Shown here: one piece after another, positions 9,236 through 32,000 of the stretch | How positions within the stretch are numbered: position 1 is the first letter of the stretch | How the letters are laid out: each line of letters starts with the position of its first letter | Assembly: GCF_000007985.2 (NCBI RefSeq) | Contig: NC_002939.5 | Coordinates: 630,001 to 662,000 of the forward strand | Source of the DNA: Geobacter sulfurreducens PCA | GTDB taxonomy: Bacteria; Desulfobacterota; Desulfuromonadia; Geobacterales; Geobacteraceae | Length of the DNA: 32,000 bases | Reading direction: 5' to 3' | Translations under genes and position numbers: made by a program | The notes under the pieces: generated by a model | The model's input: only the letters and a program-made list of their open reading frames with translations | Database searches by the model: none | What the model was told of the DNA's origin: nothing

Positions 9236-9284
9236 GTGTCGATACTCCTTGGTCGTTATCCGGGTGATTTCTGCCGGTCCCCGA

Positions 9285-10757: not shown

Positions 10758-10773
10758 GAAAGGAAATCTCCTC

Positions 10774-10920: not shown

Positions 10921-10935
10921 ACTATGGTGTAAACA

Positions 10936-10964
10936 AAGCTAAACGATAATCCCCCACAAGTCAA
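10936..10964 (-). promoter_or_regulatory. candidate sigma-70 promoter for the riboswitch-thiED-thiC transcript
   Basis: The minus strand reads TTGACT-N17-TAGCTT, placing a TSS about 10 nt before the riboswitch P1. Confidence 0.4.
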
Positions 10965-11047
10965 CGGAATTAACATGGATTTGCCGGGCGGGAAGGCGCA
11001 GGTTTTCATCCTTTACAGGCGGGGTGAGAAGTGGTACCTAAAGGGGC

Positions 11048-16135: not shown

Positions 16136-16163
16136 GACAGGGAACGATCACGGGGAGGAACCC

Positions 16164-17435: not shown

Positions 17436-17449
17436 CAGGGGAGGTCGCG

Positions 17450-17959
17450 ATGGAAAACCCGCAGGTACTCATCATTATGGGAAGTGATTCGGACGTTCCC
17501 GTCATGGAAGAAGCGGCAAAGGCCCTTGATGCTTTCGGCGTGACCTGGGAAATGCGAGTGGCGTCGGCCCACCGTTCGCCGAAAAAAGCGGCAGATCTCG
17601 CCTCGAACGCGGCCGCGCGCGGCGTGAAGGCGATCATCGCCGGTGCCGGCGTGGCTGCCCACCTTGCGGGGGTCCTCGCCGCCGAGACTATTCTGCCGGT
17701 TATCGCGGTACCAATGCCGGGAGGGGCGCTCAACGGCGTTGATGCCCTGTACTCCATGGTGCAGATGCCTGGCGGGATTCCGGTGGCTACTATGGCCATC
17801 GGCAAGGCAGGAGCCAAAAATGCCGGGCTGTTCGCGGTGCAGATCCTGGCCCTCGGGGATGCCGCCATGGCCGGCAGGCTCGTGGAATACAAGGCGAGTA
17901 TGGCGGAAGAGGTGGAGGCCAAGGATCGGGCCCTTCAGGTCAAGTTGGGCCGCGCGTAG
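17450..17959 (+). CDS. purE: N5-carboxyaminoimidazole ribonucleotide mutase
   Basis: 169 aa from MENPQVLIIMGSDSDVPVM (AGGGGAGG RBS), with SAHRSP and AGGAAHLAG-type motifs. The track ORF start at 17381 overlaps purD and is an extension. Confidence 0.93.
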   Translation: MENPQVLIIMGSDSDVPVMEEAAKALDAFGVTWEMRVASAHRSPKKAADLASNAAARGVKAIIAGAGVAAHLAGVLAAETILPVIAVPMPGGALNGVDALYSMVQMPGGIPVATMAIGKAGAKNAGLFAVQILALGDAAMAGRLVEYKASMAEEVEAKDRALQVKLGRA

Positions 17960-18020: not shown

Positions 18021-18048
18021 TTGACAAAATCTGCATGTGCTGTATAAA
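18021..18048 (+). promoter_or_regulatory. near-consensus sigma-70 promoter of ppcA
   Basis: TTGACA (18021-18026), a 16-nt spacer, then TG-TATAAA (18041-18048), about 45 nt upstream of the ppcA ATG. Confidence 0.6.
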
Positions 18049-18091
18049 AGGTTGCGTTTTCATCAACCTGTTAGAAAGGGGTAAGAATCAC

Positions 18092-18367
18092 ATGAAAAAG
18101 GTTATTGCTTCTCTCGCGCTGTCCGTATTCTGCGCCGGCCTCGCCTTTGCCGCCGACGACATCGTCCTCAAGGCCAAGAACGGTGATGTGAAGTTCCCGC
18201 ACAAGGCCCACCAGAAGGCTGTTCCCGACTGTAAGAAGTGCCACGAGAAAGGCCCGGGCAAGATCGAGGGCTTCGGCAAAGAGATGGCTCATGGCAAGGG
18301 CTGCAAGGGGTGCCACGAAGAAATGAAGAAGGGGCCGACGAAGTGCGGCGAGTGCCACAAGAAGTAA
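18092..18367 (+). CDS. ppcA: periplasmic triheme cytochrome c7 PpcA
   Basis: 91 aa: signal peptide MKKVIASLALSVFCAGLAFA, then a 71-aa mature protein with three CXXCH motifs (CKKCH, CKGCH, CGECH). It is identical, as far as I recall, to G. sulfurreducens PpcA. Confidence 0.97.
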   Translation: MKKVIASLALSVFCAGLAFAADDIVLKAKNGDVKFPHKAHQKAVPDCKKCHEKGPGKIEGFGKEMAHGKGCKGCHEEMKKGPTKCGECHKK

Positions 18368-18403
18368 TGATGATTTGACGTTACTTCACTGAGGTGCACC
18401 GAA

Positions 18404-18435
18404 GGGATAACAGAACTTACTGTTATCCCTTTTTC
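18404..18435 (+). terminator. rho-independent terminator of ppcA
   Basis: GGGATAACAG-aactta-CTGTTATCCC-TTTTTC, a 10-bp perfect stem plus T-tract, 37 nt after the stop. Confidence 0.85.
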
Positions 18436-18565
18436 TTGACCGCTAAAATAATTAAATTAAATTAACTGTTTGTTTTTTCCGGATATTTTTGTTTATAATC
18501 GTCTCTGCCCTGGTCGGGGATCTGGCATTGACGACCATAATCCTAAACATTGCGGGAGCGTTACC

Positions 18566-19930
18566 TTGACAACCAGCGATCGCGGCTTCTTGCAGGCACT
18601 GTGGGATTTCTTCTGTTCCCTCAAGTTGGCAATCTTCCTTCTCATTCTTCTAGCGGCAACGTCCATCATCGGTACGATCATTCCGCAGCAGAATCCGCTT
18701 CCCCCCGAGTACATCGCGGCCATAGGCGGCACGGGAAGCATGAAGTTCAAGGTCTACTCGACCCTTGGCTTCTTTGATATGTACCACTCCTGGTGGTTCA
18801 TTCTCCTGCTCTATCTGTTCACGGTCAACATCGTAGCCTGTTCCATCAAGCGGCTGCCCCGGGTATGGAAAACCATTTCCGAGCCGACGCTCGTCATGGA
18901 CGAGGGCTTTGAGCGGACCCTGACGCTCACCCATGACTTCAAGAAAGAGGGTGATGCGGCTGACCTGAACGAGAAGATGAAGGCTTTCCTCAAGAGCGAG
19001 TTCGCCGAGCCGGTGGTGACCGAGCGGGACGGAGAGTTCCACCTCTTCGCCCAGAAGTCGCCGTACAGCAGGCTGGGTGTTTATGTCGTGCACCTGAGCA
19101 TCGTCATCATATTCATCGGTGCCCTGCTCGGATCGTTCTTCGGGTACAAGGCCTATGTGAATATCGTGGAAGGCTCGGGAGCCTCTACGGTCATGTCTCG
19201 CAAGGGCGTGCCGATTGATCTCGGCTTTACGGTTAAGTGTGAGGATTTTTCGGTTTCGTTTTACGACACCGGGGCCCCAAAAGAATTCAAGAGTCTCCTC
19301 ACCGTCATCGACGGCGGCAAGGTGGTCATCGACAAACGCCCTGTCATCGTGAACGAGCCGCTGACCTACAAGGGGATAACGTTTTACCAGTCGAGCTACG
19401 GCCCTGCGGATGAAGGCGGCCTCTATCACCTCACCGTGCGCGAGCGCAAGGGAGGAGCTCCCGTACGGCTATCTCTGTCCATGGGAGAGCGGAAGGTCCT
19501 GCCCGACGGCTCCGCAGTCCAGCTCCTGGAGGCTACTGACGAAATCGGGCGCTTCATTCCCCAGTTCCGGGGCCCGGCGGTGCGGGTCGCTGTGGAGCCC
19601 AAGAGCGGCGAGCCCCAGGCGTTCATCGTGTTCCAGAACTATCCGGAATTCGACGTCCAGCGTGGAGCGGACCATATCTTCACGTATGAAGGGGCCGATC
19701 TCAAGATGTTCACCGGACTTCAGGTCGCCAAAGACCCGGGTGTCTGGGTAGTGTGGCTGGGATGCACCCTGATGGTGGTTGGCTGTTGCATGGCCTTCTT
19801 CATGTCCCACAAGCGGATCTGGATACGGGTTCGCAAGGGGCATGTGACCCTCGGCGGCACCGCCAACAAGAACCAGCCGGGATTCCAACTCGCCTTCGAC
19901 ACCCTTGTCGATAAACTGAAAACTCTGTAA
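18566..19930 (+). CDS. resB: cytochrome c biogenesis protein ResB/CcsB (System II)
   Basis: TTG 18566 (GGGAG 7 nt upstream) gives MTTSDRGFLQALWDFFCSLKLAIFLLILLA, a typical ResB N-terminus. The protein has a large periplasmic domain and a C-terminal TM (VWVVWLGCTLMVVGCCMAFF). The track start at 18470 lies in AT-rich promoter-like DNA. Confidence 0.85.
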   Translation: MTTSDRGFLQALWDFFCSLKLAIFLLILLAATSIIGTIIPQQNPLPPEYIAAIGGTGSMKFKVYSTLGFFDMYHSWWFILLLYLFTVNIVACSIKRLPRVWKTISEPTLVMDEGFERTLTLTHDFKKEGDAADLNEKMKAFLKSEFAEPVVTERDGEFHLFAQKSPYSRLGVYVVHLSIVIIFIGALLGSFFGYKAYVNIVEGSGASTVMSRKGVPIDLGFTVKCEDFSVSFYDTGAPKEFKSLLTVIDGGKVVIDKRPVIVNEPLTYKGITFYQSSYGPADEGGLYHLTVRERKGGAPVRLSLSMGERKVLPDGSAVQLLEATDEIGRFIPQFRGPAVRVAVEPKSGEPQAFIVFQNYPEFDVQRGADHIFTYEGADLKMFTGLQVAKDPGVWVVWLGCTLMVVGCCMAFFMSHKRIWIRVRKGHVTLGGTANKNQPGFQLAFDTLVDKLKTL

Positions 19931-19951
19931 GTACGGGCGGAGGATTGACTA

Positions 19952-20803
19952 ATGACCAGTTCCATGCTGTTCAACATCACGACGTTCACCTACCTGGTCT
20001 CCATGCTCGCTTTTTTTGCCTTCCTGGCGAGCAGGAACCGTCACCTGGGGATGGCGGGGAGTCTCATTTCCTATTTTGGCTTCTTCGTCCACACGGCTGC
20101 CATTCTGCTCCGCTGGAAGGAGTCCTATGACATCGGGCACGGCCACGCTCCCCTGTCGAATCTCTACGAGTCGGTGGTTTTCTTTGCCTGGACCATCGTT
20201 CTCATCTTCGGCATCATTGACCTGAAGTACAAGTACCGGGTCGTGGGCGCGTTCGTCATGCCCTTTGCGCTCCTCGGCATGGCCTGGGCCCAGCTGACGC
20301 TCAACAGCGGCATCGAGCCTCTTGTCCCGGCGCTCCAGAGCAACTGGCTGCTCTATCACGTCGTCACCTGCTTCCTGGGGTATGCCGCCTTTGCCGTTGC
20401 CTGCGGCATCTCCATCATGTATCTGATCAAGGCGGGGAAAGAGGACTCATCCCAATCGGCACAGGCCGGCGGAATCATCTCGATGTTTCCCCCTACGAAG
20501 ATCCTTGATGATCTCAACTACAAGGCGATCATGATCGGGTTCCCGCTGCTCACGCTCGGTATAATCACCGGCGCAGCATGGGCCAACTACGCCTGGGGTA
20601 CCTACTGGAGCTGGGACCCGAAAGAGACCTGGTCGCTGATCGTCTGGTTCGTTTATGCCGCATTCCTGCATGCCCGCTTTACCCGCGGGTGGGTCGGGAA
20701 GCGCGCCGCCATCCTTTCCATTGTCGGATTCGCGGCCACTATCTTCTGCTACCTCGGTGTGAACCTTCTTCTCTCCGGTCTCCACAGTTACGGAGGAGGG
20801 TAG
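19952..20803 (+). CDS. ccsA: cytochrome c biogenesis protein CcsA/ResC (System II heme handling)
   Basis: 283 aa, polytopic, with the WWD heme-handling motif WGTYWSWDPKETWSL and conserved His residues. It lies 21 nt after resB. Confidence 0.93.
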   Translation: MTSSMLFNITTFTYLVSMLAFFAFLASRNRHLGMAGSLISYFGFFVHTAAILLRWKESYDIGHGHAPLSNLYESVVFFAWTIVLIFGIIDLKYKYRVVGAFVMPFALLGMAWAQLTLNSGIEPLVPALQSNWLLYHVVTCFLGYAAFAVACGISIMYLIKAGKEDSSQSAQAGGIISMFPPTKILDDLNYKAIMIGFPLLTLGIITGAAWANYAWGTYWSWDPKETWSLIVWFVYAAFLHARFTRGWVGKRAAILSIVGFAATIFCYLGVNLLLSGLHSYGGG

Positions 20804-20875
20804 GCCTTCTGTTGGCAATGCTCTTGCATCATGTGCAGGGCATGCCTGACAATTTCTCCCGACATCCCCTCATCG

Positions 20876-20901
20876 CTTCGGCGCCCGCATGGGCGCCGAA
20901 G
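20876..20901 (+). promoter_or_regulatory. perfect 11-bp GC-rich hairpin between ccsA and the first multiheme cytochrome gene
   Basis: CTTCGGCGCCC-gcat-GGGCGCCGAAG, ending 15 nt before ATG 20917 and followed by TTCGTGCGTT (a broken U-tract). Confidence 0.6.
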
Positions 20902-20916
20902 TTCGTGCGTTCCGCC

Positions 20917-21930
20917 ATGAAAGCGTTGCTGGCCGGCAGTGTTTGTCGCCTTCTGGCCGTTTCCCTCGTTATGTCAGCCACTTCCCTTTGGTCGGCGCCT
21001 ATACCCGGCATCCCTGACGGATGCGCCACGCGTTGTCACAGGAGCAAGGCCCGCGATGGCGTAGTGCATGGGCCGGTGGCCTCCGATGATTGCATCGCCT
21101 GTCACAATCCCGTCGGCGCGGCGGTCCACCCCAAGCAGCAGGGGGCGTTCCGGCCCGTGGCGAAAGGTGCTGCCCTCTGCCAGACCTGCCATGAAAGCAT
21201 GGCATCGAAGAGGGTGGTTCATCCCCCGGTTGGCGGAGGAGAGTGCCTCTCCTGCCATGACCCTCACCAGTCGGCCAATCCGTCACTTCTCAAGGCGCGC
21301 GGTGCTGCGCTCTGCTTCGGTTGCCACGATGCCGCTGCCTTTTCCGTCCGCCATGGCCATCTGCCCGTCACCACCGGCGAATGCCTGAAGTGCCACGACC
21401 CCCATCAGTCAGACTCCCCGAGGCTTCTCCGCGGGAGCGGGGCGGCTCTTTGTTTCCGGTGCCATGACGAAAAAATGGCAGCGGGCCGGTCAATTCACCA
21501 ACCCGTGGCGCGGGGAGAGTGCTGCGACTGTCATAACCCGCACGGGTCCTCCTTCCCGAAGCTTCTGCGGAATGCCTATCCCGAGGCGCTGTACCTGAGC
21601 TACGAGCAGAATGACTTTGCCCTCTGTTTCACGTGCCACTCCCGCCAGATGGCCGACGACCGCCGCACGGATACCCTCACCGGCTTCCGCAACGGTGACA
21701 ATAATCTGCACTATCTGCACATCAACAAACCCGACAAGGGGCGTTCGTGCAAGACCTGCCACGACGCCCATGCGGCGCCGCAGCAGCGGCTTGTCAAAGA
21801 GCGGATTCCCGGCTTCGGCAGTTGGGACATACCCATCCGATACACAAAGACGGATACCGGCGGCACCTGCGTTGTGGGGTGCCACAAGCCGAAATCCTAC
21901 GACAGGCTCCGCGCGGTGAGCAACCCGTAG
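20917..21930 (+). CDS. periplasmic multiheme c-type cytochrome, tandem 'doubled CXXCH' modules (9 CXXCH plus 2 CX3CH)
   Basis: ATG 20917 gives the signal peptide MKALLAGSVCRLLAVSLVMSATSLWSA. Motifs are CIACH, CQTCH, CLSCH, CFGCH, CLKCH, CFRCH, CCDCH, CFTCH and CKTCH, plus CATRCH and CVVGCH. The module H.PV..GEC..CH.PH.S..P.LL...G..LCF.CHD occurs four times. Alternative start ATG 20818. Confidence 0.85.
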   Translation: MKALLAGSVCRLLAVSLVMSATSLWSAPIPGIPDGCATRCHRSKARDGVVHGPVASDDCIACHNPVGAAVHPKQQGAFRPVAKGAALCQTCHESMASKRVVHPPVGGGECLSCHDPHQSANPSLLKARGAALCFGCHDAAAFSVRHGHLPVTTGECLKCHDPHQSDSPRLLRGSGAALCFRCHDEKMAAGRSIHQPVARGECCDCHNPHGSSFPKLLRNAYPEALYLSYEQNDFALCFTCHSRQMADDRRTDTLTGFRNGDNNLHYLHINKPDKGRSCKTCHDAHAAPQQRLVKERIPGFGSWDIPIRYTKTDTGGTCVVGCHKPKSYDRLRAVSNP

Positions 21931-21944
21931 CGGCTGGAGGATAC

Positions 21945-22937
21945 ATGCTGGGGAAAGGACTATGGCTGGCCGTCTGTGCCGTGATACTGCTGGGCACGCC
22001 GGCGACGGCGGGCACAATCGCCTTTGTGGCGCCGACGCCGAATACCTGGGTCGGCCGATCGGACCATCTGGTTCTCAAGCTGAACAATCCCGAAATCACC
22101 GCTGTCCGCATTAATGTCAATGGTGTTGTCGGCGATATGCTGGCTATCTCGTCGCCCGAGTACCGCAAGGCCTTCCAGGATTTTCTCATCGTGCAGCCCC
22201 TCTGGGATCAGGGCCGCAATGAAGTCTCCGTGGAGGCGTATGCCGGCAAGGAGCGGGTCGAGACCGCCGTAGCGTCCGTCTATTACGCTCCTGGCAGGGA
22301 TGGTGCGACGGTGCCGCCTGAGTTCAAGCCGTTTGTCTTCCATGTGGCCGATACGGAGAGCAGGTGTGCCGGTTGCCACAACATGGAACCGAGCCCGGCC
22401 CAGCTTCTGAGCACCCAGGAGCGGGAAAACCCCTGTTTCGGCTGCCATCGCGGCATGCTCAAGGTGGCGTTTGTCCATGGCCCGGCCGGGACTTACTCCT
22501 GCGTCTATTGTCACAAGGAAAAGGCATCCCCGAAATATTCGGTGCCCAAGCGCGACAGTGCGCTCTGTGTCGAGTGCCACGAGGACAAGTCAACGGATTT
22601 CGCCAAGCGGAAATACGTTCACGGCCCCATTGCCGGCGGCATGTGCGAGGTCTGTCATGATCCCCACGGCAGCGCCAACCGGGCCCAGTTGCGGATGCCG
22701 ATCAACACGCTCTGTCTTTCCTGCCATGAGACCGTTGCCAGGAGGCCCCATATCCTGAGGACCCCGTCGGGAGAGGGACACCCGGTAAGCGGCAGGAAAG
22801 ACCCCTCTGCGTCAGCCTCGGGGCGCGATATGTCGTGCATATCATGCCACAATCCCCATGCGGCGGATGTGCGTTATTTCTTTGTGAATAACGCGGAAGA
22901 ACGCATGGCATTGTGCCAGATGTGCCATAACAAGTAG
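21945..22937 (+). CDS. periplasmic octaheme c-type cytochrome with a non-heme N-terminal beta-rich domain
   Basis: GGAGG RBS and ATG 21945 give the signal MLGKGLWLAVCAVILLGTPATAG. An N-domain of about 130 aa has no Cys-heme motif. Then come 8 CXXCH: CAGCH, CFGCH, CVYCH, CVECH, CEVCH, CLSCH, CISCH, CQMCH. Confidence 0.88.
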   Translation: MLGKGLWLAVCAVILLGTPATAGTIAFVAPTPNTWVGRSDHLVLKLNNPEITAVRINVNGVVGDMLAISSPEYRKAFQDFLIVQPLWDQGRNEVSVEAYAGKERVETAVASVYYAPGRDGATVPPEFKPFVFHVADTESRCAGCHNMEPSPAQLLSTQERENPCFGCHRGMLKVAFVHGPAGTYSCVYCHKEKASPKYSVPKRDSALCVECHEDKSTDFAKRKYVHGPIAGGMCEVCHDPHGSANRAQLRMPINTLCLSCHETVARRPHILRTPSGEGHPVSGRKDPSASASGRDMSCISCHNPHAADVRYFFVNNAEERMALCQMCHNK

Positions 22938-22992
22938 ACTGGGGCTGGCGGCGTACGATTGCCGGACTATTCTCATGGAACGAGGTGACCAT

Positions 22993-24078
22993 ATGAACGT
23001 TCTGAAGCTCATCCGCAGGTTCGTCGGTGCGGCCGCCCTGTGCGCCCTGTGCGCCGGTTGCGCAGGACAACAGGTCCGGGAGGAGCGGCGCTACTTCTGG
23101 CCGCCGCTGCCCGAGCGTCCCAGGATCGAATGGCTCGGTGCCTACAGCAGCCAGAACGACTTCCCGAAGCAGGGATTCGCGTCGTTCATGGCAGCCATTG
23201 CCGGAGAAGAACAGGCCATGAGCCTGACCAAGCCGCTGGATGTCTATGCGGATGGCCAGGACCGGATTTATGTGGCAGATCCGGGACTTCGCGGCGTGGT
23301 TGTGTTCAATATGAAAGAGCGGAGCGTGTCGATGCTCGGCGGACCCCAGGCGGCTAACCAGTTTAATACCCCGGTTTCGGTCACCGGTGATTCCCAGGGG
23401 AATATTTATGTTTCCGATGCGGAAAAGGGTGGGATACTGATTTTTGACAGATTTGAGGTGCCGCGTCGTTTTATCGACACCAAAGCTGCTGTCAAGAGAA
23501 ACACTGACATCGCCGTGGATGAAAAGGGTCAGAGAATTCTCGTGGTGGATGCGCGCGAGCACCGGATTGCCATCCTCGACATGCAGGGGGGGCTGCTTTC
23601 CGCCTTTGGGAAGCGTGGCATCGAAGACGGCGAATTCAACTTCCCCGTGGCGGTGGCCATCAATCACAAGGGGGAGATTATCGTGGGCGATGCCATGAAC
23701 GCCCGGGTTCAGATCTTCGATCAGGACGGGAAGTTTCTCCGCAAGTTCGGGCGCCGTGGCGACGGGCCGGCTGATTTCCAGATCATGAAAGGCGTGGCCG
23801 TCGACTCGGAGGATCATATCTATGTGACCGAGGGAAAAGGTCACAAGCTCATTATCTTCGGCACCAACGGCGAGTATCTTCTCACCGTGGGCGGACTCTA
23901 CTCCGCCATCACCACCGGCAAGCAGGCCCCCGGCGGATTCGTCATCCCGCAAGGAGTCTTTATTGACGATAAGGACGTCATTTACGTGGTTGACCAACTC
24001 AATCGGCGGTTCCAGGTGTTCCAGTACATCTCCGACGATTTCCTCAAGCGCAACCCCATCCCGGGATGGCAGGAGTAA
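22993..24078 (+). CDS. NHL-repeat (six-bladed beta-propeller) probable lipoprotein
   Basis: GAGGTG lies 5 nt before ATG 22993. The signal MNVLKLIRRFVGAAALCALCAGC looks lipobox-like. The blade signature recurs six times (D..G.IYV.D....R..VF, e.g. IYVADPGLRGVVVFN, IYVSDAEKGGILIFD, ILVVDAREHRIAILD, IIVGDAMNARVQIFD, IYVTEGKGHKLIIFG, IYVVDQLNRRFQVFQ). Confidence 0.88.
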   Translation: MNVLKLIRRFVGAAALCALCAGCAGQQVREERRYFWPPLPERPRIEWLGAYSSQNDFPKQGFASFMAAIAGEEQAMSLTKPLDVYADGQDRIYVADPGLRGVVVFNMKERSVSMLGGPQAANQFNTPVSVTGDSQGNIYVSDAEKGGILIFDRFEVPRRFIDTKAAVKRNTDIAVDEKGQRILVVDAREHRIAILDMQGGLLSAFGKRGIEDGEFNFPVAVAINHKGEIIVGDAMNARVQIFDQDGKFLRKFGRRGDGPADFQIMKGVAVDSEDHIYVTEGKGHKLIIFGTNGEYLLTVGGLYSAITTGKQAPGGFVIPQGVFIDDKDVIYVVDQLNRRFQVFQYISDDFLKRNPIPGWQE

Positions 24079-24283
24079 TATCAGTTTCATCACCTGCCAG
24101 GAGCCTGTCGGACTTGGAAATCGAAGCAAAAACTCGGCTGGGCCAGGGCTGCTTGTGTCGACTTGTGCAGGTTAATGGTCATTTTATTGGCCGGAAACCC
24201 GGCGAAATATGAACCGGCCAGACGGATTTGCAGCAGTTTTATGGTAAGTCCGGCAGACGCCTGGAACCCGCGGTTTCCGAAGA

Positions 24284-24325
24284 GCCCTCGCCAGCATGGT
24301 TGCTGTCGGGGGCCTTCTTATTTTT
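24284..24325 (+). terminator. rho-independent terminator ending the resB-ccsA-cytochrome-NHL transcription unit
   Basis: GCCCTCG-c-CAGCA-tggt-TGCTG-t-CGGGGGC (12 bp with one 1x1 mismatch and one G-U pair), followed by CTTCTTATTTTTG. It lies about 205 nt after the NHL stop. Confidence 0.7.
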
Positions 24326-24560
24326 GTCATCAATAAGCTATTTCGCGGATGCATTGAGTGCCGGTGCCATCTTCCGTCCGGTGTTGTAGCGAATTGCGGT
24401 TGGTGCCAAAAAAATGTAGCGTTATATGACGTATGATCTTCTCGGAAATACGTCCTGGGACAACGTTGCCGAGAGAAATGGGCTTGGTTGGTGTGATTCG
24501 TGTGCGTGTATCTATCCGTAATTATTCATTTCAGCTCTTTTATGAGAATGCGTTGAATAT

Positions 24561-24576
24561 TGGCGTGCTGGTTGCA
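24561..24576 (+). promoter_or_regulatory. sigma-54 (RpoN) -24/-12 promoter of omcE
   Basis: TGGCGTG-ctgg-TTGCAT fits TGGCACG-N4-TTGCW with exact GG-N10-GC spacing. It is 78 nt upstream of the omcE ATG and sits in an AT-rich tract. Confidence 0.65.
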
Positions 24577-24653
24577 TTGTGTTTCTTCATCCATTGGTGT
24601 CAACGCGAACGGCTGAGAAAGCACATAGTACTCACGTGAAAGGAGAACGCAGA

Positions 24654-25352
24654 ATGAGAAGCGAAGTAAAAATCGGATTGGCCCTGACCGCACTTCTGGT
24701 GGCCGTTACCGCGGCGGGAGCCGCCAGCATCAAGAATACCAAGCACGACCTGAGCTCCGGAAGCACCGGCGCCACATTCAAGGCGACGAACACCGACCAG
24801 ATCTGCGTGTTCTGTCACACCCCGCACAACGCGCAACAGGACATTCCCCTGTGGAACCGCGGCAACCCCACGGCCAGCACCTTCACCCTCTACTCGTCCA
24901 GCAGCATGAATAACGTGCCGGTCAAGCAGGGCTTTACGGCCGACTCCATCTCGCTCTTCTGCATGAGCTGTCATGACGGGGCCACCGGCCTGGGGGGCGC
25001 GGTGCACAACGACCCCAATGGTGCGGCAATCGCCATGGTGGGGGGGAACGATTTGATCACCGGTGAAGCCAACCTGGGCACCGATCTGAGCAATGATCAC
25101 CCCGTTAACTTCGAGGTAACCCCAGCCGGAATTGCCGCCGACGGCAACCTGGGCGCCCTCGATACCGGCACCAACCCGCCGACCATGAAGACCGGGGACG
25201 TGACCAACGGCCTCCCCCTCTTCAAGTCAGCCCGCGGAGCCACGACCCTCGAGTGCGGCAGCTGCCACAAGGTCCACGACAACACCGACGCTCCGTTCCT
25301 CCGTACCACCATGGCGGGCAGCAAGCTCTGTCTGGGTTGCCACAAGAAGTAG
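24654..25352 (+). CDS. omcE: tetraheme outer-surface cytochrome OmcE (nanowire subunit)
   Basis: AAAGGAGAA RBS and ATG 24654, 232 aa, signal MRSEVKIGLALTALLVAVTAAGAA. Four CXXCH motifs (CVFCH, CMSCH, CGSCH, CLGCH). Size, heme count and position a few genes after ppcA match G. sulfurreducens OmcE as I remember it. Confidence 0.85.
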   Translation: MRSEVKIGLALTALLVAVTAAGAASIKNTKHDLSSGSTGATFKATNTDQICVFCHTPHNAQQDIPLWNRGNPTASTFTLYSSSSMNNVPVKQGFTADSISLFCMSCHDGATGLGGAVHNDPNGAAIAMVGGNDLITGEANLGTDLSNDHPVNFEVTPAGIAADGNLGALDTGTNPPTMKTGDVTNGLPLFKSARGATTLECGSCHKVHDNTDAPFLRTTMAGSKLCLGCHKK

Positions 25353-25372
25353 GGGGTTCCTCTCCGGGAAAA

Positions 25373-25399
25373 GGGTGGACTCCGGTCCACCCTTTTTTT
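25373..25399 (+). terminator. rho-independent terminator of omcE
   Basis: GGGTGGAC-tccg-GTCCACCC-TTTTTTT, 21 nt after the stop. Confidence 0.85.
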
Positions 25400-25506
25400 A
25401 CGCAGCAGTCCGGCTTGTGGTGCCTGCAGCCGGTCGCCCGGAGGGTGGTTTCTCGTGGAGCGGGTGTGAATGTGTTGCCGTCTCCGGCGGTATACCGGAG
25501 TGATTC

Positions 25507-27774
25507 GTGGGTTCCATGACGCTAGGACGCATGCACATAGGGCTGGCGTCAGTGTCGGTCTTGGCCGGCCTGGTTCTTTGCTCGCCCGCATCGGTGCGGG
25601 CCGGTATTTCCGGCGAGGCGGAGCTGGGATACGTGCGCTATGAGGCCGATGCCAACGGCGCGCGGGTCAGCGATGCCCATTCGTTCTATCAGCGCTACTC
25701 CTTGCTGTATGAGACATCCGGCGAGCTTTACAAGGGCAGGGTAGGGCGCTACGACCTTGCCCTGGGCTACGAGTGGGGCTCCTTTGATACTAAGATAAAG
25801 AATCCCTCCAATCCCACCGACCCCCAGACCAACTACAACCCCTCCGTCAGTGCCGGACATCTGCTGTATCGCGGCGAAGTGGTGCTCGATCCGCTGGAGC
25901 TCCCCCTGCGGCTCAGAGCCTACAGCTATGACACGAACCGGATCAACATGCACGAGGACCTGTCCGGCATTGACGGTTCGTCGATCTTTGCGCCGAGGCT
26001 GATCACCAACCTTTACGACGGCATGCATATCAACAGTGGCGCAACTCTCGTCTTCGGGGTCAAGAACGGCCTGACCAACGGTTATAACGCCATTTTCCGG
26101 CATATCCCGCTGGTCATGCTCGACTACCGCGACGATGTCAACCGGGACCTGAAGAGTCTGGCTCCCGTGGATACGCGCATGCGCCGTCTGGCCTTCGTGA
26201 GTCTGAACAAGAGGGACAACTGGTTCCACTACCGGACCACCGATTTCAGGGATTACCTCAACACCGACCAGTCCTTCAAGGAAACCCAGATGCAGATCGG
26301 CACGGTCGATCACCTGCTGGCGCGGCGGTGGATCGATTTGACCAACTGGGTGAAGATCTCGGCCGACGGCCAGTTCACCAAACACGCGAGTTCAATGCCG
26401 GCCAACTCCTTCGAAGCTTACGAGCTTAACCTGTTCGCCGTGGCTTCCCGCAAGACCTGGGATGCTCGGACCTTTTCCAGTTTTTCCCGGCTGCTCGACG
26501 ATGAAGGGATTACCCTGGAGCGGACGGTGCCCTTCTATGCAAGCGGTGTCCTCGGGGCCGATGTAGACTGGAAGGCCAGCCTCTATTCCAATGAAAAGAA
26601 GATTCAGTCCCCCAGCGGCAGCGTGGTCAACAACTCCAACTACAGCGCTTCGGTCCGCGCCGACATGTTCCGGCGCTCTCCCTTCACTCTGGGGGTGGTG
26701 GTGCGTGGGGAGAGCACCGAGAGTTACGGCTCGAAACTGCTTTCCTTCGAAGGAGGCGTCGAAACGGCAAGCACTGCGCGCCTTTCGCGCGACTACAGCC
26801 TGTCGGGGAGCTATACGGTCAAGTACTTCGATGCGACCGGCGGTACCGGTTCGGGCGACGGCTACCTCAACCAGAACGTCCTTGGTCGCGTGGCGTATGC
26901 GGCATCGCCCACCTGGCGTTTCGAGGTGGAGGAGGACCTGTCAGCGGCCAGCGGCACCAATCCGCGCAACTTCAACAATTCGGCTATCACCGTGAACAGC
27001 GGATTCAGCAGCGGCACGAGCACGGTATCGGGCTCTGCCATCTCGTTCCAGCGACGCAACAGCGAAATCGACGAATATGTCCGCTCCGTTACCACGGTCA
27101 GCGCGGCTTGGCGTCCCTTCTCCCGCACCTCGCTCAGCTTTTCGGTCAGCGAAGACGTCCTCATGCAGTCGGGAGCGCCGACCGACTTCCTGACCACCTT
27201 CCGCAGTACCATCGACTACAGTACGCCGACCTTTTTGGCCCGGATGCGCAACAGCTACAACGTGCGGATGGTCGGTGGCGAGAGCATCGACTATCTGGAA
27301 AGCGTGGGCATCCTGGAATACCGTCCCGTCCGGCAGTTGGAGGGACTTCTCACCTATACCTACAACGTGGGCGACGTGGACGTGAACACCAGGAGCGAGT
27401 TCCTGGACCTGCGGCAGCGGCTGGGTTACAGCTTCTACACCCTGAGCGGGGCGAACAGGAAACTGCTGGAACTCTACGAGGAGTTCACCTATAATCGCAC
27501 CCTGAACACGGGGACGGTGGCCAACGAGCTCAACACTACCAGGCGGTTTACCCTGGGGGTTCGGTATTTCCCGCTCCGCAGCCTGTTTGTTGGGGCGGAT
27601 GCGCGCTACTCGCTCATCGAGCCGGGAAGCATCACGGAGCAACTCTATACCGGCGTGGTGGGGCTCAATTTCCGGAAACTCCAGGCTAACCTGGAGTATA
27701 CCTACGGCAAGCGGGACGGCAGCGACAACCGGATCGAGAAGCGGATCGCCGCAAACGTGAAGAAGTTCTTCTGA
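25507..27774 (+). CDS. large outer-membrane beta-barrel protein (755 aa), family not recognised
   Basis: GGAG lies 6 nt before GTG 25507. Signal ...MHIGLASVSVLAGLVLCSPASVRA/GISGEAELGYVRYE. An alternating hydrophobic/polar, aromatic-rich strand pattern runs throughout with many Y/F-x-Y/F turns. The protein ends in ...ANVKKFF (terminal Phe beta-signal). Confidence 0.8.
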   Translation: MGSMTLGRMHIGLASVSVLAGLVLCSPASVRAGISGEAELGYVRYEADANGARVSDAHSFYQRYSLLYETSGELYKGRVGRYDLALGYEWGSFDTKIKNPSNPTDPQTNYNPSVSAGHLLYRGEVVLDPLELPLRLRAYSYDTNRINMHEDLSGIDGSSIFAPRLITNLYDGMHINSGATLVFGVKNGLTNGYNAIFRHIPLVMLDYRDDVNRDLKSLAPVDTRMRRLAFVSLNKRDNWFHYRTTDFRDYLNTDQSFKETQMQIGTVDHLLARRWIDLTNWVKISADGQFTKHASSMPANSFEAYELNLFAVASRKTWDARTFSSFSRLLDDEGITLERTVPFYASGVLGADVDWKASLYSNEKKIQSPSGSVVNNSNYSASVRADMFRRSPFTLGVVVRGESTESYGSKLLSFEGGVETASTARLSRDYSLSGSYTVKYFDATGGTGSGDGYLNQNVLGRVAYAASPTWRFEVEEDLSAASGTNPRNFNNSAITVNSGFSSGTSTVSGSAISFQRRNSEIDEYVRSVTTVSAAWRPFSRTSLSFSVSEDVLMQSGAPTDFLTTFRSTIDYSTPTFLARMRNSYNVRMVGGESIDYLESVGILEYRPVRQLEGLLTYTYNVGDVDVNTRSEFLDLRQRLGYSFYTLSGANRKLLELYEEFTYNRTLNTGTVANELNTTRRFTLGVRYFPLRSLFVGADARYSLIEPGSITEQLYTGVVGLNFRKLQANLEYTYGKRDGSDNRIEKRIAANVKKFF

Positions 27775-27815
27775 CAACGGGTTCCGTCGCCCCTCCTGGA
27801 TACCAACTGTAAAAA

Positions 27816-27842
27816 AACCGGGCCGGACCCGGTTTTTCTTTT
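27816..27842 (+). terminator. rho-independent terminator after the beta-barrel gene, abutting the next start codon
   Basis: A7-AACCGGG-ccgga-CCCGGTT-TTTCTTTT. The hairpin ends 6 nt before ATG 27849. Confidence 0.7.
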
Positions 27843-27848
27843 GTCGCC

Positions 27849-28850
27849 ATGGCCGATTCGATTACCTTTTCCATCATCATTCCCGTGAAGCCGGGCGGAA
27901 CCGTCCGTGCCCTCGATCGCCTCGGATCGGCCGAGTATCCCTCCTCGCACATGGAGGTCCTGGTGGCCGAGGGGACGCGGCCGAGCCGTCAGCGTAACCA
28001 GGCTGCAGCCGCTGCAGCGGGCGAGATACTCTATTTTCTGGATGACGACTCTCTGACGTCACCGGATTTTCTGGCGCGGGCTGCGGCACACCTGGCCGAT
28101 CCATCCATAGCCGCCGTGGGCGGCCCGTCGCTCACCCCTGCATCCGACAGCCGATTCCAGCGCGCCATCGGCGTCGTTCTGGCATCGCGGCTGGGTGGGG
28201 GCGGGGCGCGCAACCGCTACCGCGCCACCGGCAGCCCCCGCCGCACGAGCGAGCGGGAACTGATCCTGTGCAACCTGGCCATGCGCCGGGATGTCTTCCT
28301 GGCGGAGGGGGGGCTTGACGAGCGGCTCTACCCCAACGAGGAGAACGAACTCATGGACCGGATCTCGAAGCGGGGAATGAGCCTCGTACACGATCCGGAC
28401 CTGGCTGTCCGGCGGAGCCAGCGACCCACGTTCCGGGCGTTTGTCCGTCAGTTTTTCGGCTATGGAAGGGGCCGCGGCGAGCAGACCCGCATAGCCGGTG
28501 TGCGCTCAGTGGTGGATTTCCTGCCAACGGTGTTTCTGATCTACCTGCTTCTCCTGCCGGTCGCGCCCTGGGCTCCCTGTTTCCTGCCTGCTGCCCTCTA
28601 CGGTGCGGCGGTTATGGTGTCGGCCCTGTCGGGTGCCGTGCATTCGCGCCTCTATGCCGCATTACCGTGGCTCGTTGTGCTCTATCCGACACTCCACCTC
28701 TGTTATGGGGCCGGCCTCTTGAAAGGCCTGCTGGCACCCCGCTTCAGGTCCGGTGGCGGGGAAACCGCGCCGGTCACGATCCGTTGCGTCAAGGAGTTCG
28801 GCACTCCTTGGCATCTGCCTGCCCACGGTCCCAGGGAGGTCCCGCGATGA
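27849..28850 (+). CDS. family 2 glycosyltransferase with C-terminal membrane domain
   Basis: ITFSIIIPVKPGG, PSRQRNQAA and a DxD-type LDDDS form a GT-A N-domain. Three to four hydrophobic helices lie in residues about 225-300. Confidence 0.8.
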   Translation: MADSITFSIIIPVKPGGTVRALDRLGSAEYPSSHMEVLVAEGTRPSRQRNQAAAAAAGEILYFLDDDSLTSPDFLARAAAHLADPSIAAVGGPSLTPASDSRFQRAIGVVLASRLGGGGARNRYRATGSPRRTSERELILCNLAMRRDVFLAEGGLDERLYPNEENELMDRISKRGMSLVHDPDLAVRRSQRPTFRAFVRQFFGYGRGRGEQTRIAGVRSVVDFLPTVFLIYLLLLPVAPWAPCFLPAALYGAAVMVSALSGAVHSRLYAALPWLVVLYPTLHLCYGAGLLKGLLAPRFRSGGGETAPVTIRCVKEFGTPWHLPAHGPREVPR

Positions 28851-30346
28851 CGGCATCGCCGCTGCCGCACAAGCGCATCCTGCTCGTCTTTTTTCTTCTG
28901 GTGACCGTGACGGTCTACGGGAACACCTTTTTCAACCAGTGGACCTATGACGATATCCCCGTTGTCCTGAAGAATCCCGATGCCCACTCGCTTGCCGGTT
29001 TTGCCCGGAACACGATGCCCGGCCGCCCCATACGCGAGCTCACCTACATCCCCGACCATCTCCTGTTCGGCGACCAGCCCGCCGGCTATCGCATCCAGCA
29101 GCTGGCCTGGCACGGAGTGAACGGACTGTTGCTGGTCGCCCTTTTCCACGCCCTGGGGGTAGAGCTTCCCTTTGCCCTCATGGGGGCGCTCCTCTTCCTG
29201 GTGCATCCCCTCCAGTCCGAGTCGGTGGCCGGCATCGCGCACCGCAAGGAGTTGCTGGCCCTGTTCTTTGCCCTCGGTGCCGTGCTCTGTTTCGTGGGGA
29301 GTTTCGCCGCCGCCGGGGGGCGGCGCCTTGCCTTGTGGCTCGCTGCTCTTGCCGCGTACGGTGGCGCACTCCTTGCCAATGAGGCCACGGTGACGCTGCC
29401 GCTCGTGGCTCTCCTCTACGAATGGCTGATGGTTGAACCAAGAAAAAGGGTGCTGCTCAGGCGTCCCCTCGTGACACTTCTCTTCCTCGTGGCGGCCGGT
29501 GCGGCGCTCATGTACCGGTTCCGGGGGCTCCTGGCACCTGAACATCTGCTCACGGTCTATTCCAAGAACAGCTTTGGTGCTTCGGAGAACTATCTTCCCC
29601 TCTTCATGGGTGCCATGAAGGCCTTCGGATTCTATCTCTCCAAGATCGTTCTCCCGGTCCGCCTAGCCCCCGAGTATGTATTCCGACTCTCCGAAAGCCT
29701 CTGGCAACCGTGGGCGTTGCTGTCGCTCGGGCTCCTTGCGTCAGTGGCAAGCGCGACGGTCTTTCTCCGTCGCCGGCTTCCCCTGGTATCGTTCGGTATC
29801 GGCTGGTTCCTCATTTTCTGGCTGCCGGTTTCCAACCTGGTTCCCGTGGCCTACCTGGCGGCGGACCGGTACATGTACCTCTGCCTTCCCGGCGTTGGGC
29901 TCGTCCTGGCGGGGTGCCTCCAACGCTGGCCCCACCGGAGATTTGTCGGCGCCTCCTGCCTCGTGATTGTTGTGTTCGCCGGGCTCACCGTGATACAAAA
30001 CGGGTACTGGCGCAGCGAACATACCCTCTGGCGGCATGCAGTCACGGTCAATCCCGACTCTACCTGGGTGCGCGAGACGGTGGGGCTGAGTTACCTGCTG
30101 ACGGGGGATTACAACCAGGCGGCGGCGCATGCGCGGGAGGCGCTACGGATCGACCGGTTCAATATCCGGGCGTACCTGACCCTGGCCAAGGCCGAGGAAC
30201 GGCGCGGCAATCTGGCCGAGGCGGTGCTCAATTACGAGATGTTCGCCATGTTCGGCGCCATGGAGTACCCGGACGAAGCCGCCGAGGTCAGGCTCTATCT
30301 GCCTGTCCTGCGGCAGCGTCAGGCAGTGCAGAAGCAACATCAGTGA
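28847..30346 (+). CDS. GT-C fold membrane glycosyltransferase of the TMTC/DUF1736 (PMT-like) type with C-terminal TPR repeats
   Basis: An ATGA start/stop overlap couples it to the preceding GT2. 499 aa. The first-loop acidic motif is FFNQWTYDDIPVVLKNPD, and HGVNGLLLV and VHPLQSESVAGIAHRKELLALFFAL resemble TMTC signature blocks. About 10 TM helices are followed by TPR-like helices (WRHAVTVNPDSTWV...YNQAAAHAREALRIDRFNIRAYLTLAKAEERRGNLAEA). Confidence 0.75.
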   Translation: MTASPLPHKRILLVFFLLVTVTVYGNTFFNQWTYDDIPVVLKNPDAHSLAGFARNTMPGRPIRELTYIPDHLLFGDQPAGYRIQQLAWHGVNGLLLVALFHALGVELPFALMGALLFLVHPLQSESVAGIAHRKELLALFFALGAVLCFVGSFAAAGGRRLALWLAALAAYGGALLANEATVTLPLVALLYEWLMVEPRKRVLLRRPLVTLLFLVAAGAALMYRFRGLLAPEHLLTVYSKNSFGASENYLPLFMGAMKAFGFYLSKIVLPVRLAPEYVFRLSESLWQPWALLSLGLLASVASATVFLRRRLPLVSFGIGWFLIFWLPVSNLVPVAYLAADRYMYLCLPGVGLVLAGCLQRWPHRRFVGASCLVIVVFAGLTVIQNGYWRSEHTLWRHAVTVNPDSTWVRETVGLSYLLTGDYNQAAAHAREALRIDRFNIRAYLTLAKAEERRGNLAEAVLNYEMFAMFGAMEYPDEAAEVRLYLPVLRQRQAVQKQHQ

Positions 30347-30354
30347 GGTGCCCG

Positions 30355-31305
30355 GTGGAACTGAGTATCGTTGTTCCGATCTACAATGAGGAAGAGACTA
30401 TTCCGCATCTTCATGCGCGGGTGAGCGACGCCCTGGTCGGGTCAGGCATCGACTACGAGCTGATTCTCGTGGATGACGGCTCCTCTGACGGCTCGTTCGC
30501 CCTGCTGCGGGAGATTGCCCAACAAGACCGGCGGGTGAAGGTGATCCGCTTCCGCCGCAACTTCGGCCAGACCGCCGCCATGGCGGCCGGCTTCGATGCC
30601 GCCCGGGGAAGGGTCATCGTGCCCATGGACGGCGACCTCCAGAACGACCCGGCTGACATTCCGATGCTCCTGGCCACGATCGACGAGGGGTACGACGTGG
30701 TCTCGGGCTGGCGCAAGGACCGGCAGGACACCTTCGTCAACCGGCGCCTTCCCTCCATTATCGCAAATGCGCTCATCTCCCGGATGACAGGGGTTCACCT
30801 CCACGATTACGGCTGCACCCTGAAGGCCTACCGGCGCGAAGTGCTGGACGGGGTCAATCTGTACGGAGAGATGCACCGGTTCGTCCCCGCCCTGGCCTCC
30901 CAGGTGGGGGCGCGGGTGACGGAGATACCGGTCCGCCACCATGCCCGCCTCTATGGCACGAGCAAATACGGCATTTCCCGTACCATGCGCGTCGTTCTGG
31001 ACCTGATGACGGTGAAGTTCCTGCTCACCTATTCCACCAAGCCGATCCAGCTCTTCGGCAAGTGGGGCATCTATACCATCCTGGCCGGGTTCCTGACCGG
31101 CGGGCTTACCCTCTCTATGAAACTCTTCGAGGGGATGAGCATGAACCGCAATCCCCTGCTGATCCTGACCGCCTTTCTCCTCTTCGGAGGGGTGCAGTTC
31201 ATCGCCCTCGGGCTGCTGGGAGAGGTGAACGCCCGAACCTACCACGAGTCCCAGGGGAAACCGATTTACGTCGTCCGGGAGAAAATCAACCTGGATGAAA
31301 GGTAG
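30355..31305 (+). CDS. polyprenyl-phosphate hexosyltransferase (GtrB/Dpm1/ArnC-like GT2 with two C-terminal TM helices)
   Basis: GAGGT lies 5 nt before GTG 30355 (alternative start GTG 30343, overlapping the upstream stop). Motifs LSIVVPIYNEEE, ELILVDDGSSDGS, NFGQTAAMAAGF, MDGDLQNDP, SGWRKDRQD and GEMHRFVP. Two TM helices occur at WGIYTILAGFLTGGL and LLILTAFLLFGGVQFIALGLLGE. Confidence 0.85.
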   Translation: MELSIVVPIYNEEETIPHLHARVSDALVGSGIDYELILVDDGSSDGSFALLREIAQQDRRVKVIRFRRNFGQTAAMAAGFDAARGRVIVPMDGDLQNDPADIPMLLATIDEGYDVVSGWRKDRQDTFVNRRLPSIIANALISRMTGVHLHDYGCTLKAYRREVLDGVNLYGEMHRFVPALASQVGARVTEIPVRHHARLYGTSKYGISRTMRVVLDLMTVKFLLTYSTKPIQLFGKWGIYTILAGFLTGGLTLSMKLFEGMSMNRNPLLILTAFLLFGGVQFIALGLLGEVNARTYHESQGKPIYVVREKINLDER

Positions 31306-31317
31306 GGGGGCGGCGCC

Positions 31318-32000
31318 GTGAGGATTCTCATGCTGGCCCCCACGCCGTTTTTCGCCGACCGCGGGTGCCACGTCAGGATTTACGAAGAGGCCCGGACGCT
31401 CATTGCCCGCGGGCACCAGGTGCGGATAGTCACCTACCATCTGGGGCGGGACATGGCGGGCATCCCCACGGACCGCACCCTGCGCGTCCCCTGGTACACG
31501 AAGCTTTCCGCCGGACCCTCCTGGCACAAGCCCTACCTGGATGTTCTCCTCTGCGGCACCGCCCTGCGCACCGCCCGGCGCCTGCGCCCCGACCTGATTC
31601 ATGCCCATCTGCATGAAGGGGCGTTCTTCGGCGTGTTCCTGAAAAAACTGATGGGTATCCCCCTTCTGTTCGACTGTCAGGGGAGCCTCACCATGGAGCT
31701 GGCCGACCACGGGTTTGTCCGCGAAGGGTCGCTGCTCTACCGTTTTTTCGCCCTAATGGAGGGGGGAATCAACCGCAGCGCCGATGCCATCGTGACCAGT
31801 TCGGGGCCGGGCAGGGACGATCTCGTCACGAAATGGGGGGTGCCGGCTGTAAAGGTGACGGCCCTCATGGACGGGGTCGATACCGCGGTGTTCCGTCCCC
31901 ATGACCGCACGGAGGTTCGCCGCCGGCTCGGCATCGCGCCGGACGTGCCGCTGGCGGTCTATCTAGGAGTGCTGAACCGCTACCAGGGGATCGATCTTCT
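31318..32000 (+). CDS. family 4 (GT-B) glycosyltransferase, N-terminal part; the 3' end lies outside the window
   Basis: Absent from the ORF track because there is no stop in the window. I translated it by eye from GTG 31318: (M)RILMLAPTPFFADRGCHVRIYEEARTLIARGHQVRIVTYH...DLIHAHLHEG...MDGVDTAVFRP. The frame stays open to nt 32000 and is typical of a GT4 N-domain. Confidence 0.75.
   Translation, partial: MRILMLAPTPFFADRGCHVRIYEEARTLIARGHQVRIVTYHLGRDMAGIPTDRTLRVPWYTKLSAGPSWHKPYLDVLLCGTALRTARRLRPDLIHAHLHEGAFFGVFLKKLMGIPLLFDCQGSLTMELADHGFVREGSLLYRFFALMEGGINRSADAIVTSSGPGRDDLVTKWGVPAVKVTALMDGVDTAVFRPHDRTEVRRRLGIAPDVPLAVYLGVLNRYQGIDL

Follow-up and report, generated by a model that had tools for sequence, protein, structure and literature searches.

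The locus considered here has been described before, as the OmcE nanowire cluster of the Desulfuromonadia, in a recent preprint (bioRxiv 10.1101/2025.10.22.684050). Synteny from purHDE and resB/ccsB to tRNA-modification and ffh genes is reported in it for nearly all Desulfuromonadia (Fig. 4D and text), with an OmcE cluster inserted there in some genomes. The minimal cluster is given as two multihemes, β-propeller lipoproteins, OmcE and a large β-barrel, to which freshwater genera add 15-70 glycosylation genes (GT2, GT4, GT39). A porin-type mounting model is presented, and the passage of cytochrome nanowires across the outer membrane, like their polymerisation, is called an open question. We analysed one such locus in a 32,000-nucleotide stretch of Geobacter sulfurreducens PCA (NC_002939.5, positions 630,001 to 662,000; hereafter the window, numbered from its first nucleotide). 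From position 18092 to the window end, open reading frame (ORF) calls and Pfam/NCBIfam profile matches recover twelve plus-strand genes in a row: ppcA, resB, ccsB, two multiheme cytochrome genes (MHC1 and MHC2), an NHL-propeller lipoprotein gene, omcE, a β-barrel gene, and four glycosyltransferase genes designated GT2a, GT-C/TPR, GT2b and GT4. Because the OmcE protein is 100% identical to PDB 7TFS (232 of 232 residues of chain A) and PpcA matches 1OS6, the stretch is the ppcA-to-omcE region of G. sulfurreducens, GSU0612 onward. An original prediction, made from the sequence of the window, had suggested that the twelve genes could be a self-contained nanowire pathway and not a chance neighbourhood, and had regarded only ppcA and omcE as characterised. 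The latter point is superseded by the preprint, which describes the same cluster. Specialists have covered its composition and synteny before, which makes the finding essentially known, and a type example in a model organism will hold little surprise for them. The passages of the preprint available to us contain no mention of a sigma-54 promoter, terminator conservation, the strand count of the barrel, or a resemblance to MtrA/MtrB.

We consider it likely that this 14-kb stretch is a composite of a conserved backbone and a nanowire module, and not one pathway. The module takes in five or six of the twelve genes, namely MHC1-MHC2-NHL, omcE, the barrel gene and probably GT-C/TPR. The window proteins were compared by tblastn, phmmer and a hidden Markov model (HMM) of the barrel with 80 loci carrying omcE homologues, sampled at one genome per species from Desulfuromonadia and from other phyla (Acidobacteriota, Nitrospirota, Beta- and Gammaproteobacteria, Myxococcota and others). 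An NHL gene lies at most 2.6 kb upstream of an omcE copy in all 33 Desulfuromonadia loci and in 33 of the 41 evaluable loci of other phyla, and the NHL lipoprotein is omcE's most widely conserved partner. A large secreted protein of outer membrane type is encoded at most 4.5 kb downstream of omcE in 29 of 29 evaluable Desulfuromonadia loci and in 18 of 33 loci of other phyla; outside the Desulfuromonadia, a gene for a SurA-like peptidyl-prolyl isomerase (PPIase) stands between the two in 15 of 33 loci. Two or three NHL-omcE pairs occur in many loci, and a second NHL gene was found in eleven from Desulfuromonadia, the window having a single one. Orthologues of MHC1, MHC2, ppcA, resB and ccsB were detected, among the 80 loci, only in those of Desulfuromonadia; MHC2 is found there when the contig reaches far enough upstream, and MHC1 is missing from nine. 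A comparison of omcE neighbourhoods, proposed with the original prediction, bears it out for part of the locus: the NHL lipoprotein and a large outer membrane protein recur across phyla.

The reciprocal sample was obtained by scanning metagenomes for close relatives of ccsB, which yielded 39 contigs with at least 3 kb of downstream sequence. The omcE module lies downstream of ccsB in three of them, and the remaining 36 have no omcE there. In twelve contigs resB-ccsB is followed by GT2a-GT2b(-GT4) without NHL, omcE or barrel, and ppcA lies upstream wherever it was detected. The backbone genes of these contigs are about as similar in sequence to those of the window as are their counterparts beside omcE, GT2b being 70-90% identical either way. 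Since ppcA, resB-ccsB and GT2a/GT2b/GT4 keep their positions in relatives without omcE at this place, they belong to a conserved backbone (purHDE, ppcA, resB-ccsB and GT2a-GT2b-GT4), and MHC1-MHC2-NHL-omcE-barrel is a cassette, present in some lineages only, between ccsB and GT2a. This result agrees with the synteny described in the preprint and refines it. It also divides what had been predicted: the NHL-omcE-barrel group, with MHC1/MHC2 and probably GT-C/TPR, is a real module, while ppcA, resB-ccsB and GT2a/GT2b/GT4 are independent of it and should not be read as nanowire-specific. The G+C content of the module (0.54-0.63) is slightly lower than that of its flanks (0.63-0.69), a difference that does not decide between insertion and loss.

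Some contigs and loci have arrangements of their own. In contig L102 the gap between ccsB and GT2a measures 45 nt. A single MHC1-like gene occupies this interval in four of the twelve omcE-less contigs (L111, L117, L121 and L153; 46-48% identity), without MHC2, NHL, omcE or barrel; it may be the remnant of a deleted module, or MHC1 may be part of the backbone. In a Nitrospirota metagenome-assembled genome (L036, 192-13455), the order is 15-heme cytochrome, NHL, OmcE, SurA-like PPIase, 612-residue outer membrane-type protein, STT3/AglB oligosaccharyltransferase, NHL, a second OmcE, 7-heme cytochrome and OmcE-like protein, with the N-glycosylation-type transferase embedded between two NHL-OmcE pairs. 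A gammaproteobacterial metagenome-assembled genome (L060, 7734-19331) encodes on one strand an OmcE-like protein, NHL, OmcE, PPIase, a 735-residue outer membrane protein, a c7-type cytochrome, two NHL proteins, a short ResB-like protein and a CcsB-like protein; this OmcE locus has its own System II-like pair and PpcA-like cytochrome. In Aromatoleum (L075, 9860-17564) the OmcE-like region lies within an 829-residue multiheme ORF with no NHL gene nearby, followed downstream by two FGE-sulfatase-like genes, a TPR protein gene, a CcsB-like gene and a GT2 gene.

Within the module, omcE (GSU0618; 24654-25352, plus strand, as are all genes of the stretch) encodes the tetraheme subunit of the OmcE filament, with four CxxCH motifs. 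OmcE also matches PDB 9YUQ (16 chains of 218 residues, 'putative multiheme cytochrome c'; E 3e-33), an entry that presumably shows the bundled OmcE filament from the 2025 preprint. The NHL gene (GSU0617; 22993-24078) encodes a six-bladed β-propeller lipoprotein with the lipobox LCAGC (Pfam NHL, 76 bits), whose relatives in the PDB are the NHL propellers of TRIM and Thin. MHC1 (GSU0615; 20917-21930) encodes a periplasmic multiheme cytochrome with nine CxxCH motifs and five paired-CXXCH domains, and MHC2 (GSU0616; 21945-22937) one with eight such motifs. The approximately 130 N-terminal residues of MHC2 (window 21945-22340), ahead of the first CxxCH, are heme-free and have no family assignment. 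For both proteins the best PDB sequence match is MtrA, chain A of 6R2Q (E 3e-12 for MHC1 and 3.6e-15 for MHC2); this chain carries the label 'Cystathionine beta-synthase' in the PDB copy used, but is in fact the multiheme component of the Mtr complex. Against the DmsE-family decaheme model TIGR03508 they score 99.5 and 67.8 bits, below the cut-off of 192.2, and they have nine and eight CxxCH motifs, not ten.

The barrel gene (GSU0619; 25516-27774) encodes a secreted protein of 752 residues ending in KKFF, for which Pfam and NCBIfam returned no match. Its AlphaFold2 model, built on a 40-sequence alignment (pLDDT 87, pTM 0.64), has a signal peptide and an all-β fold of about 34-36 long strands, a predicted very large outer membrane β-barrel. 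Foldseek matched the model to generic large outer membrane barrels only, the first being MtrB (6R2Q_B; E 2e-9, TM score 0.29-0.33). At the level of HMMs the family is limited to Desulfuromonadia. Alignment of the Geobacter barrel with the large outer membrane proteins of other phyla gave an hhalign probability of 84.6% (E 6.8e-6 over 208 columns), and one Nitrospirota ORF matched the barrel HMM at E 4e-4. β-barrels are prone to spurious profile matches, and this kinship is suggestive only.

With MtrA as the best PDB match of both multihemes, MtrB as that of the barrel, and both multihemes hitting the DmsE-family model, albeit below its cut-off, MHC1/MHC2 and the barrel could be an MtrAB-type, or porin-cytochrome (Pcc), conduit that only passes electrons to OmcE. 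OmcE would then leave the cell by another route, such as type IV pilus or type II secretion-like machinery; a pilus-dependent secretion model exists in the literature, and machinery of this kind was earlier proposed for OmcS. We judge this reading unlikely. The barrel is modelled with about 34-36 strands and not the 26 of an MtrB-type barrel, its TM score to MtrB is low, and the nine Geobacterales loci without MHC1 keep the barrel. In addition, other phyla pair a large outer membrane protein with NHL-omcE and a SurA-like PPIase, often with no MtrA-like neighbour, an arrangement that would suit assembly or export.

The composite reading must also be set against the one it replaces, in which all twelve genes, with ppcA, resB-ccsB and the GT2/GT4 genes included, form one dedicated pathway for OmcE maturation, assembly, modification and export. 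The genes are adjacent and co-directional throughout the omcE loci of Desulfuromonadia, Aklujkar et al. raised the possibility that the individual ResB/ResC pairs work for cytochromes encoded close by, and CcsB-like genes lie at most 10 kb from omcE in seven loci outside the Desulfuromonadia, the L060 locus combining ResB/CcsB-like genes with a c7 cytochrome. Co-directionality is by itself uninformative on function. The prediction of twelve consecutive plus-strand genes was borne out, but the run does not begin at ppcA and continues back through the purine genes purH, purD and purE (14570-17959) and further genes to about 12306. The twelve contigs described above keep the flanking genes without NHL, omcE or barrel, and this reading is largely refuted for ppcA, resB, ccsB, GT2a, GT2b and GT4; as a whole we regard it as very improbable. 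That omcE merely landed beside unrelated envelope genes is scarcely credible, for although the backbone genes on either side do not depend on omcE, the NHL-omcE-large outer membrane protein group recurs in Desulfuromonadia, Acidobacteriota, Nitrospirota, Beta- and Gammaproteobacteria and Myxococcota in differing surroundings, so that chance is already refuted for the core module.

The heme-attachment genes illustrate the distinction. resB (GSU0613; 18470-19930, start codon uncertain; Pfam ResB, 380 bits) and ccsB/resC (GSU0614; 19952-20803; TIGR03144, 309 bits against a cut-off of 187.6) adjoin each other and encode the synthase and heme-handling membrane subunits of System II cytochrome c biogenesis. 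Of four ResB/ResC pairs, two are orthologously conserved with G. metallireducens, this one among them. GSU0613-0614 were reported essential by transposon sequencing (bioRxiv 10.1101/2022.08.12.503762), and omcE is dispensable under several conditions; we therefore take the pair to serve heme attachment in general and not OmcE in particular. The description of this machinery as dedicated did not survive, given this essentiality and the 36 of 39 orthologue contigs without omcE. Heme-attachment genes may nevertheless have been recruited by OmcE modules elsewhere. ppcA (GSU0612; 18092-18367) likewise belongs to the backbone. Its product is a periplasmic triheme cytochrome c7 (NCBIfam CytC7_Geobact, NF043011; 150.2 bits against a cut-off of 120), and PpcA is an abundant general electron carrier of the periplasm. 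A sigma-70-like promoter (TTGACA, 17 nt, TATAAA; 18021-18049, plus strand) can be read off the sequence upstream of ppcA; it is missing from the list of a consensus scan because its second hexamer ends in A.

Four glycosyltransferase genes end the stretch, and three of them are backbone genes. GT2a (27849-28850) encodes a family-2 enzyme with a C-terminal membrane region (Pfam Glyco_trans_2_3). GT2b (30355-31305; Pfam Glycos_transf_2, 128 bits) encodes a predicted polyprenyl-phosphate sugar synthase resembling ArnC, GtrB and PgfS; the NCBIfam models of ArnC (245 bits) and PgfS (191 bits) match it over its full length, though in both cases below cut-off. GT4 (31318 to beyond the window end at 32000) matches Pfam Glyco_trans_4_4 and Glyco_transf_4. 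The fourth, GT-C/TPR (28847-30346), has a stop codon given as overlapping the start of GT2b (listed ends 30346 and 30355) and encodes a membrane glycosyltransferase of GT-C fold, related to PMT and ArnT, with a C-terminal TPR domain. Its AlphaFold2 model (pLDDT 93.5, pTM 0.91) was matched by Foldseek to ArnT (5F15; E 2.3e-4), Pmt4 (9I5K) and DPY19 (7ZLI) at TM scores of about 0.40-0.42. The acidic residues D35 and D36 are invariant in 38 sequences and would lie in the first extracytoplasmic loop, as judged from the helix map of the model. Some homologues are named protein O-mannosyltransferase or have PMT Pfam hits; neither GT-C/TPR nor GT2b reaches a curated family cut-off.

GT-C/TPR is present in 10 of the 19 omcE loci that have GT2a and GT2b and in none of the 12 omcE-less contigs (Fisher p = 0.004, without correction for phylogeny). 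Because it is seen only where omcE is present, the gene is probably part of the nanowire module. Its neighbours in Geobacter sp. UBA698 (L003) are omcE on one side and a second NHL gene on the other, with GT2a-GT2b-GT4 contiguous further on, and Nitrospirota OmcE loci have an embedded STT3/AglB oligosaccharyltransferase or TPR membrane proteins. Extra densities on the G. sulfurreducens OmcE filament were read as glycosylation in the preprint (bioRxiv 10.1101/2025.10.22.684050). These observations suggest GT-C/TPR as the best candidate for an OmcE-directed glycosyltransferase, one that would use a housekeeping donor synthase, GT2b being the probable supplier of the lipid-linked donor.

A predicted sigma-54 (RpoN) promoter precedes omcE. 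The motif TGGCGTGCTGGTTGCA (24561-24576, plus strand) has the -24 GG and -12 GC elements at fixed spacing, lies 78 nt upstream of the omcE ATG and is kept in the two closest relatives (L001 and L002). An equivalent motif was found 68-190 nt upstream of omcE in 34 of 36 Desulfuromonadia loci, where 0.069 per 330 nt would be expected as background. A block, CCAAAAAAATGTAGCGTTATATGACGTA (24406-24433), which lies about 130-155 nt upstream of this motif and is kept in L001 and L002, is a candidate site for an enhancer-binding protein or integration host factor. The main text of the RpoN-regulon paper does not mention omcE. A second motif of the -24/-12 type, TGGCAATGCTCTTGCA (20813-20828, plus strand), has one mismatch to the consensus and lies upstream of MHC1, where it is a candidate start of an MHC1-MHC2-NHL unit; similar motifs upstream of MHC1 occur in the closest relatives only (5 of 32 loci). 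Upstream of the barrel gene a sigma-54-type motif is found in 20 of 36 Desulfuromonadia loci, but not in this window. GSU0619 is up approximately 4-fold in a gsu1771 mutant that over-expresses omcE too, which hints at co-regulation. A search of the whole window with Rfam at gathering thresholds gave no match between 18 and 32 kb, and hence no riboswitch, cyclic-dinucleotide or other, upstream of omcE.

The original prediction had placed intrinsic terminators at 18404, 24284, 25373 and 27816, dividing the genes into four units. All four sites are intergenic plus-strand hairpins followed by a U-tract: T1 3' of ppcA (18401-18438; folding free energy -18.8 kcal/mol, z -6.5), T2 about 200 nt past the NHL stop codon (24279-24326; -27.1, z -3.6), T3 3' of omcE (25366-25399; -23.5, z -4.9) and the weak T4 (27813-27844; -13.7, z -1.5), which alone is unremarkable against shuffled sequences. 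They were judged by folding and conservation and not by a generic promoter/terminator scan, which showed no enrichment of terminators (11 sites, 12.7 expected) and listed only T4 of the four. Across 33 orthologous loci of Desulfuromonadia, a terminator was detected after ppcA in 22 of 22, after omcE in 29 of 33 (at +44 to +64 nt), after the barrel gene in about 18 of 33 and after the NHL gene in about 12 of 33. Applied to random 95-nt segments, the detector gives a hit in 6.8%; three of the four terminators are conserved well above this background. Because of their intergenic position and conservation we take T1-T4 as real predicted terminators, and the ppcA and omcE units as the robustly delimited ones. 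The predicted second unit, from resB to NHL, is probably two, since a sigma-54-type motif lies between ccsB and MHC1 and an earlier operon prediction set gsu0615-0616-0617 apart from resB-ccsB (PMC1829397). T4 ends 4 nt before the GT2a ATG, and expression of GT2a must therefore depend either on read-through of T4 or on a promoter within the barrel gene. Between the NHL stop codon and T2 the window has approximately 200 nt (24079-24283) that its closest relatives lack, their terminators lying 68-77 nt past the stop; no ORF or Rfam match in this interval accounts for the extra sequence.

From these parts we infer a mechanism of five steps. OmcE would be exported by Sec and receive its hemes from the general ResB/CcsB system. 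It would then probably be glycosylated in the periplasm by GT-C/TPR with a polyprenyl-phosphate sugar made by GT2b. The NHL lipoprotein may handle or dock subunits of OmcE on the inner side of the outer membrane, where the barrel, with its predicted strands numbering about 34-36, could serve as pore or anchor and as the exit for subunits or filament. Finally, the two MtrA-like multihemes may connect PpcA electrically to the base of the filament, perhaps from a position within the barrel like that of MtrA in MtrB. With a conserved sigma-54 promoter on one side and a strong terminator on the other, omcE has the layout to be expected if a major subunit greatly outnumbers its assembly factors; here the motif and hairpin are observed, and their function we infer. 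A more specific version of the composite reading is offered tentatively, as possible though doubtful: the module would be a small nanowire-specific machinery in which an NHL lipoprotein and a barrel of no described family form an export or anchor pore that also houses the MtrA-like proteins, and a TPR-bearing GT-C enzyme O-glycosylates OmcE with a housekeeping GtrB/ArnC-like donor, all under sigma-54. If this is true, the trio of NHL, subunit and barrel, which occurs in six phyla or more, would define a new outer membrane pathway of filament assembly, different from chaperone-usher, curli, type IV and type V systems.

Several points weigh against the composite reading and its mechanism. What ties the NHL lipoprotein, barrel, MHC1/MHC2 and GT-C to OmcE filaments is non-experimental. 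TM scores of the Foldseek matches for the barrel and GT-C models are low (0.29-0.42), and the strand count comes from the barrel model with its pTM of 0.64. A mutant with a gsu0616::kan insertion, which may be polar on GSU0617, outpaced the wild type in the reduction of U(VI) and Fe(III) (PMC1829397); this phenotype is not decisive, because OmcS can mask OmcE phenotypes. Heme attachment and OmcE modules may in general be functionally linked, given the ResB/CcsB-like paralogues inside some proteobacterial OmcE loci and the c7-type cytochrome in L060. The pattern attributed to insertion of the module could equally reflect its repeated deletion, and the omcE-less contigs are metagenomic, so that their source organisms may have omcE elsewhere. 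Besides being uncorrected for phylogeny, the co-occurrence of GT-C/TPR with omcE leaves 9 of 19 omcE loci without the gene.

For work on how nanowires cross the outer membrane, the analysis narrows the candidates from twelve genes to five or six, with GSU0615-0617, GSU0619 and GT-C/TPR as the list, and the conserved sigma-54 motif adds a regulatory handle. Its refinements of the known cluster are testable leads and no discoveries: the backbone status of GT2a/GT2b/GT4, the omcE-specific GT-C/TPR, the sigma-54 motif and terminator at omcE, the large barrel, and the resemblance to MtrA/MtrB.

Elsewhere in the window, a thiamine pyrophosphate (TPP) riboswitch was detected on the minus strand at 10824-10925 (82 bits, gathering score 54), at the 5' end of the thiamine-gene ORF called at 9285-11009 (minus strand; TMP-TENI and Phos_pyr_kin domains). 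This mechanically called ORF encloses the riboswitch, so its translation must actually begin further downstream on that strand. ThiC is encoded further downstream (7925-9649, minus strand), and a tRNA gene lies at 7706-7778 (minus strand; Rfam, 68 bits).

Compared with known systems, the locus departs in part from the published OmcE cluster itself. According to the preprint, the minimal cluster has two propeller lipoproteins, whereas the window has one; and glycosylation genes are described there as added after the OmcE cluster, whereas here GT2a-GT2b-GT4 follow ccsB also where omcE is absent and only GT-C/TPR tracks omcE. As for the osc (omcS-companion) cluster of G. sulfurreducens (Shen et al. 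2025, Cell Chem Biol, as cited in later papers), large β-barrels are reported from most OmcS and OmcE regions; the window contains no PPIase gene, though SurA-like PPIases occur in the OmcE loci of other phyla. Pairs such as ArnC/ArnT, GtrB/GtrC, Ppm1/Pmt and PgfS/PgfM resemble GT2b and GT-C/TPR in that a gene for a GT2 polyprenyl-phosphate sugar synthase adjoins one for a GT-C transferase, and differ in that the GT-C enzyme of this locus has a C-terminal TPR domain, a feature shared with eukaryotic TMTC proteins. Like chaperone-usher pili, the locus has a major-subunit gene, a terminator and then a gene for a large outer membrane barrel, and FimD is among the weak fold matches; we rejected a chaperone-usher assignment, as there is no gene for an Ig-like periplasmic chaperone in the locus, no usher domain architecture, and a TM score to FimD of 0.16-0.25. 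With MtrCAB and Pcc systems it shares the joint encoding of a periplasmic MtrA-like multiheme, an outer membrane barrel and an extracellular cytochrome, and it differs from them in its two 8-9-heme proteins, larger barrel, NHL lipoprotein and polymeric extracellular partner. As modelled, the OmcE module would thus resemble a porin-cytochrome conduit in outline, yet it falls outside this class on the size of its barrel.

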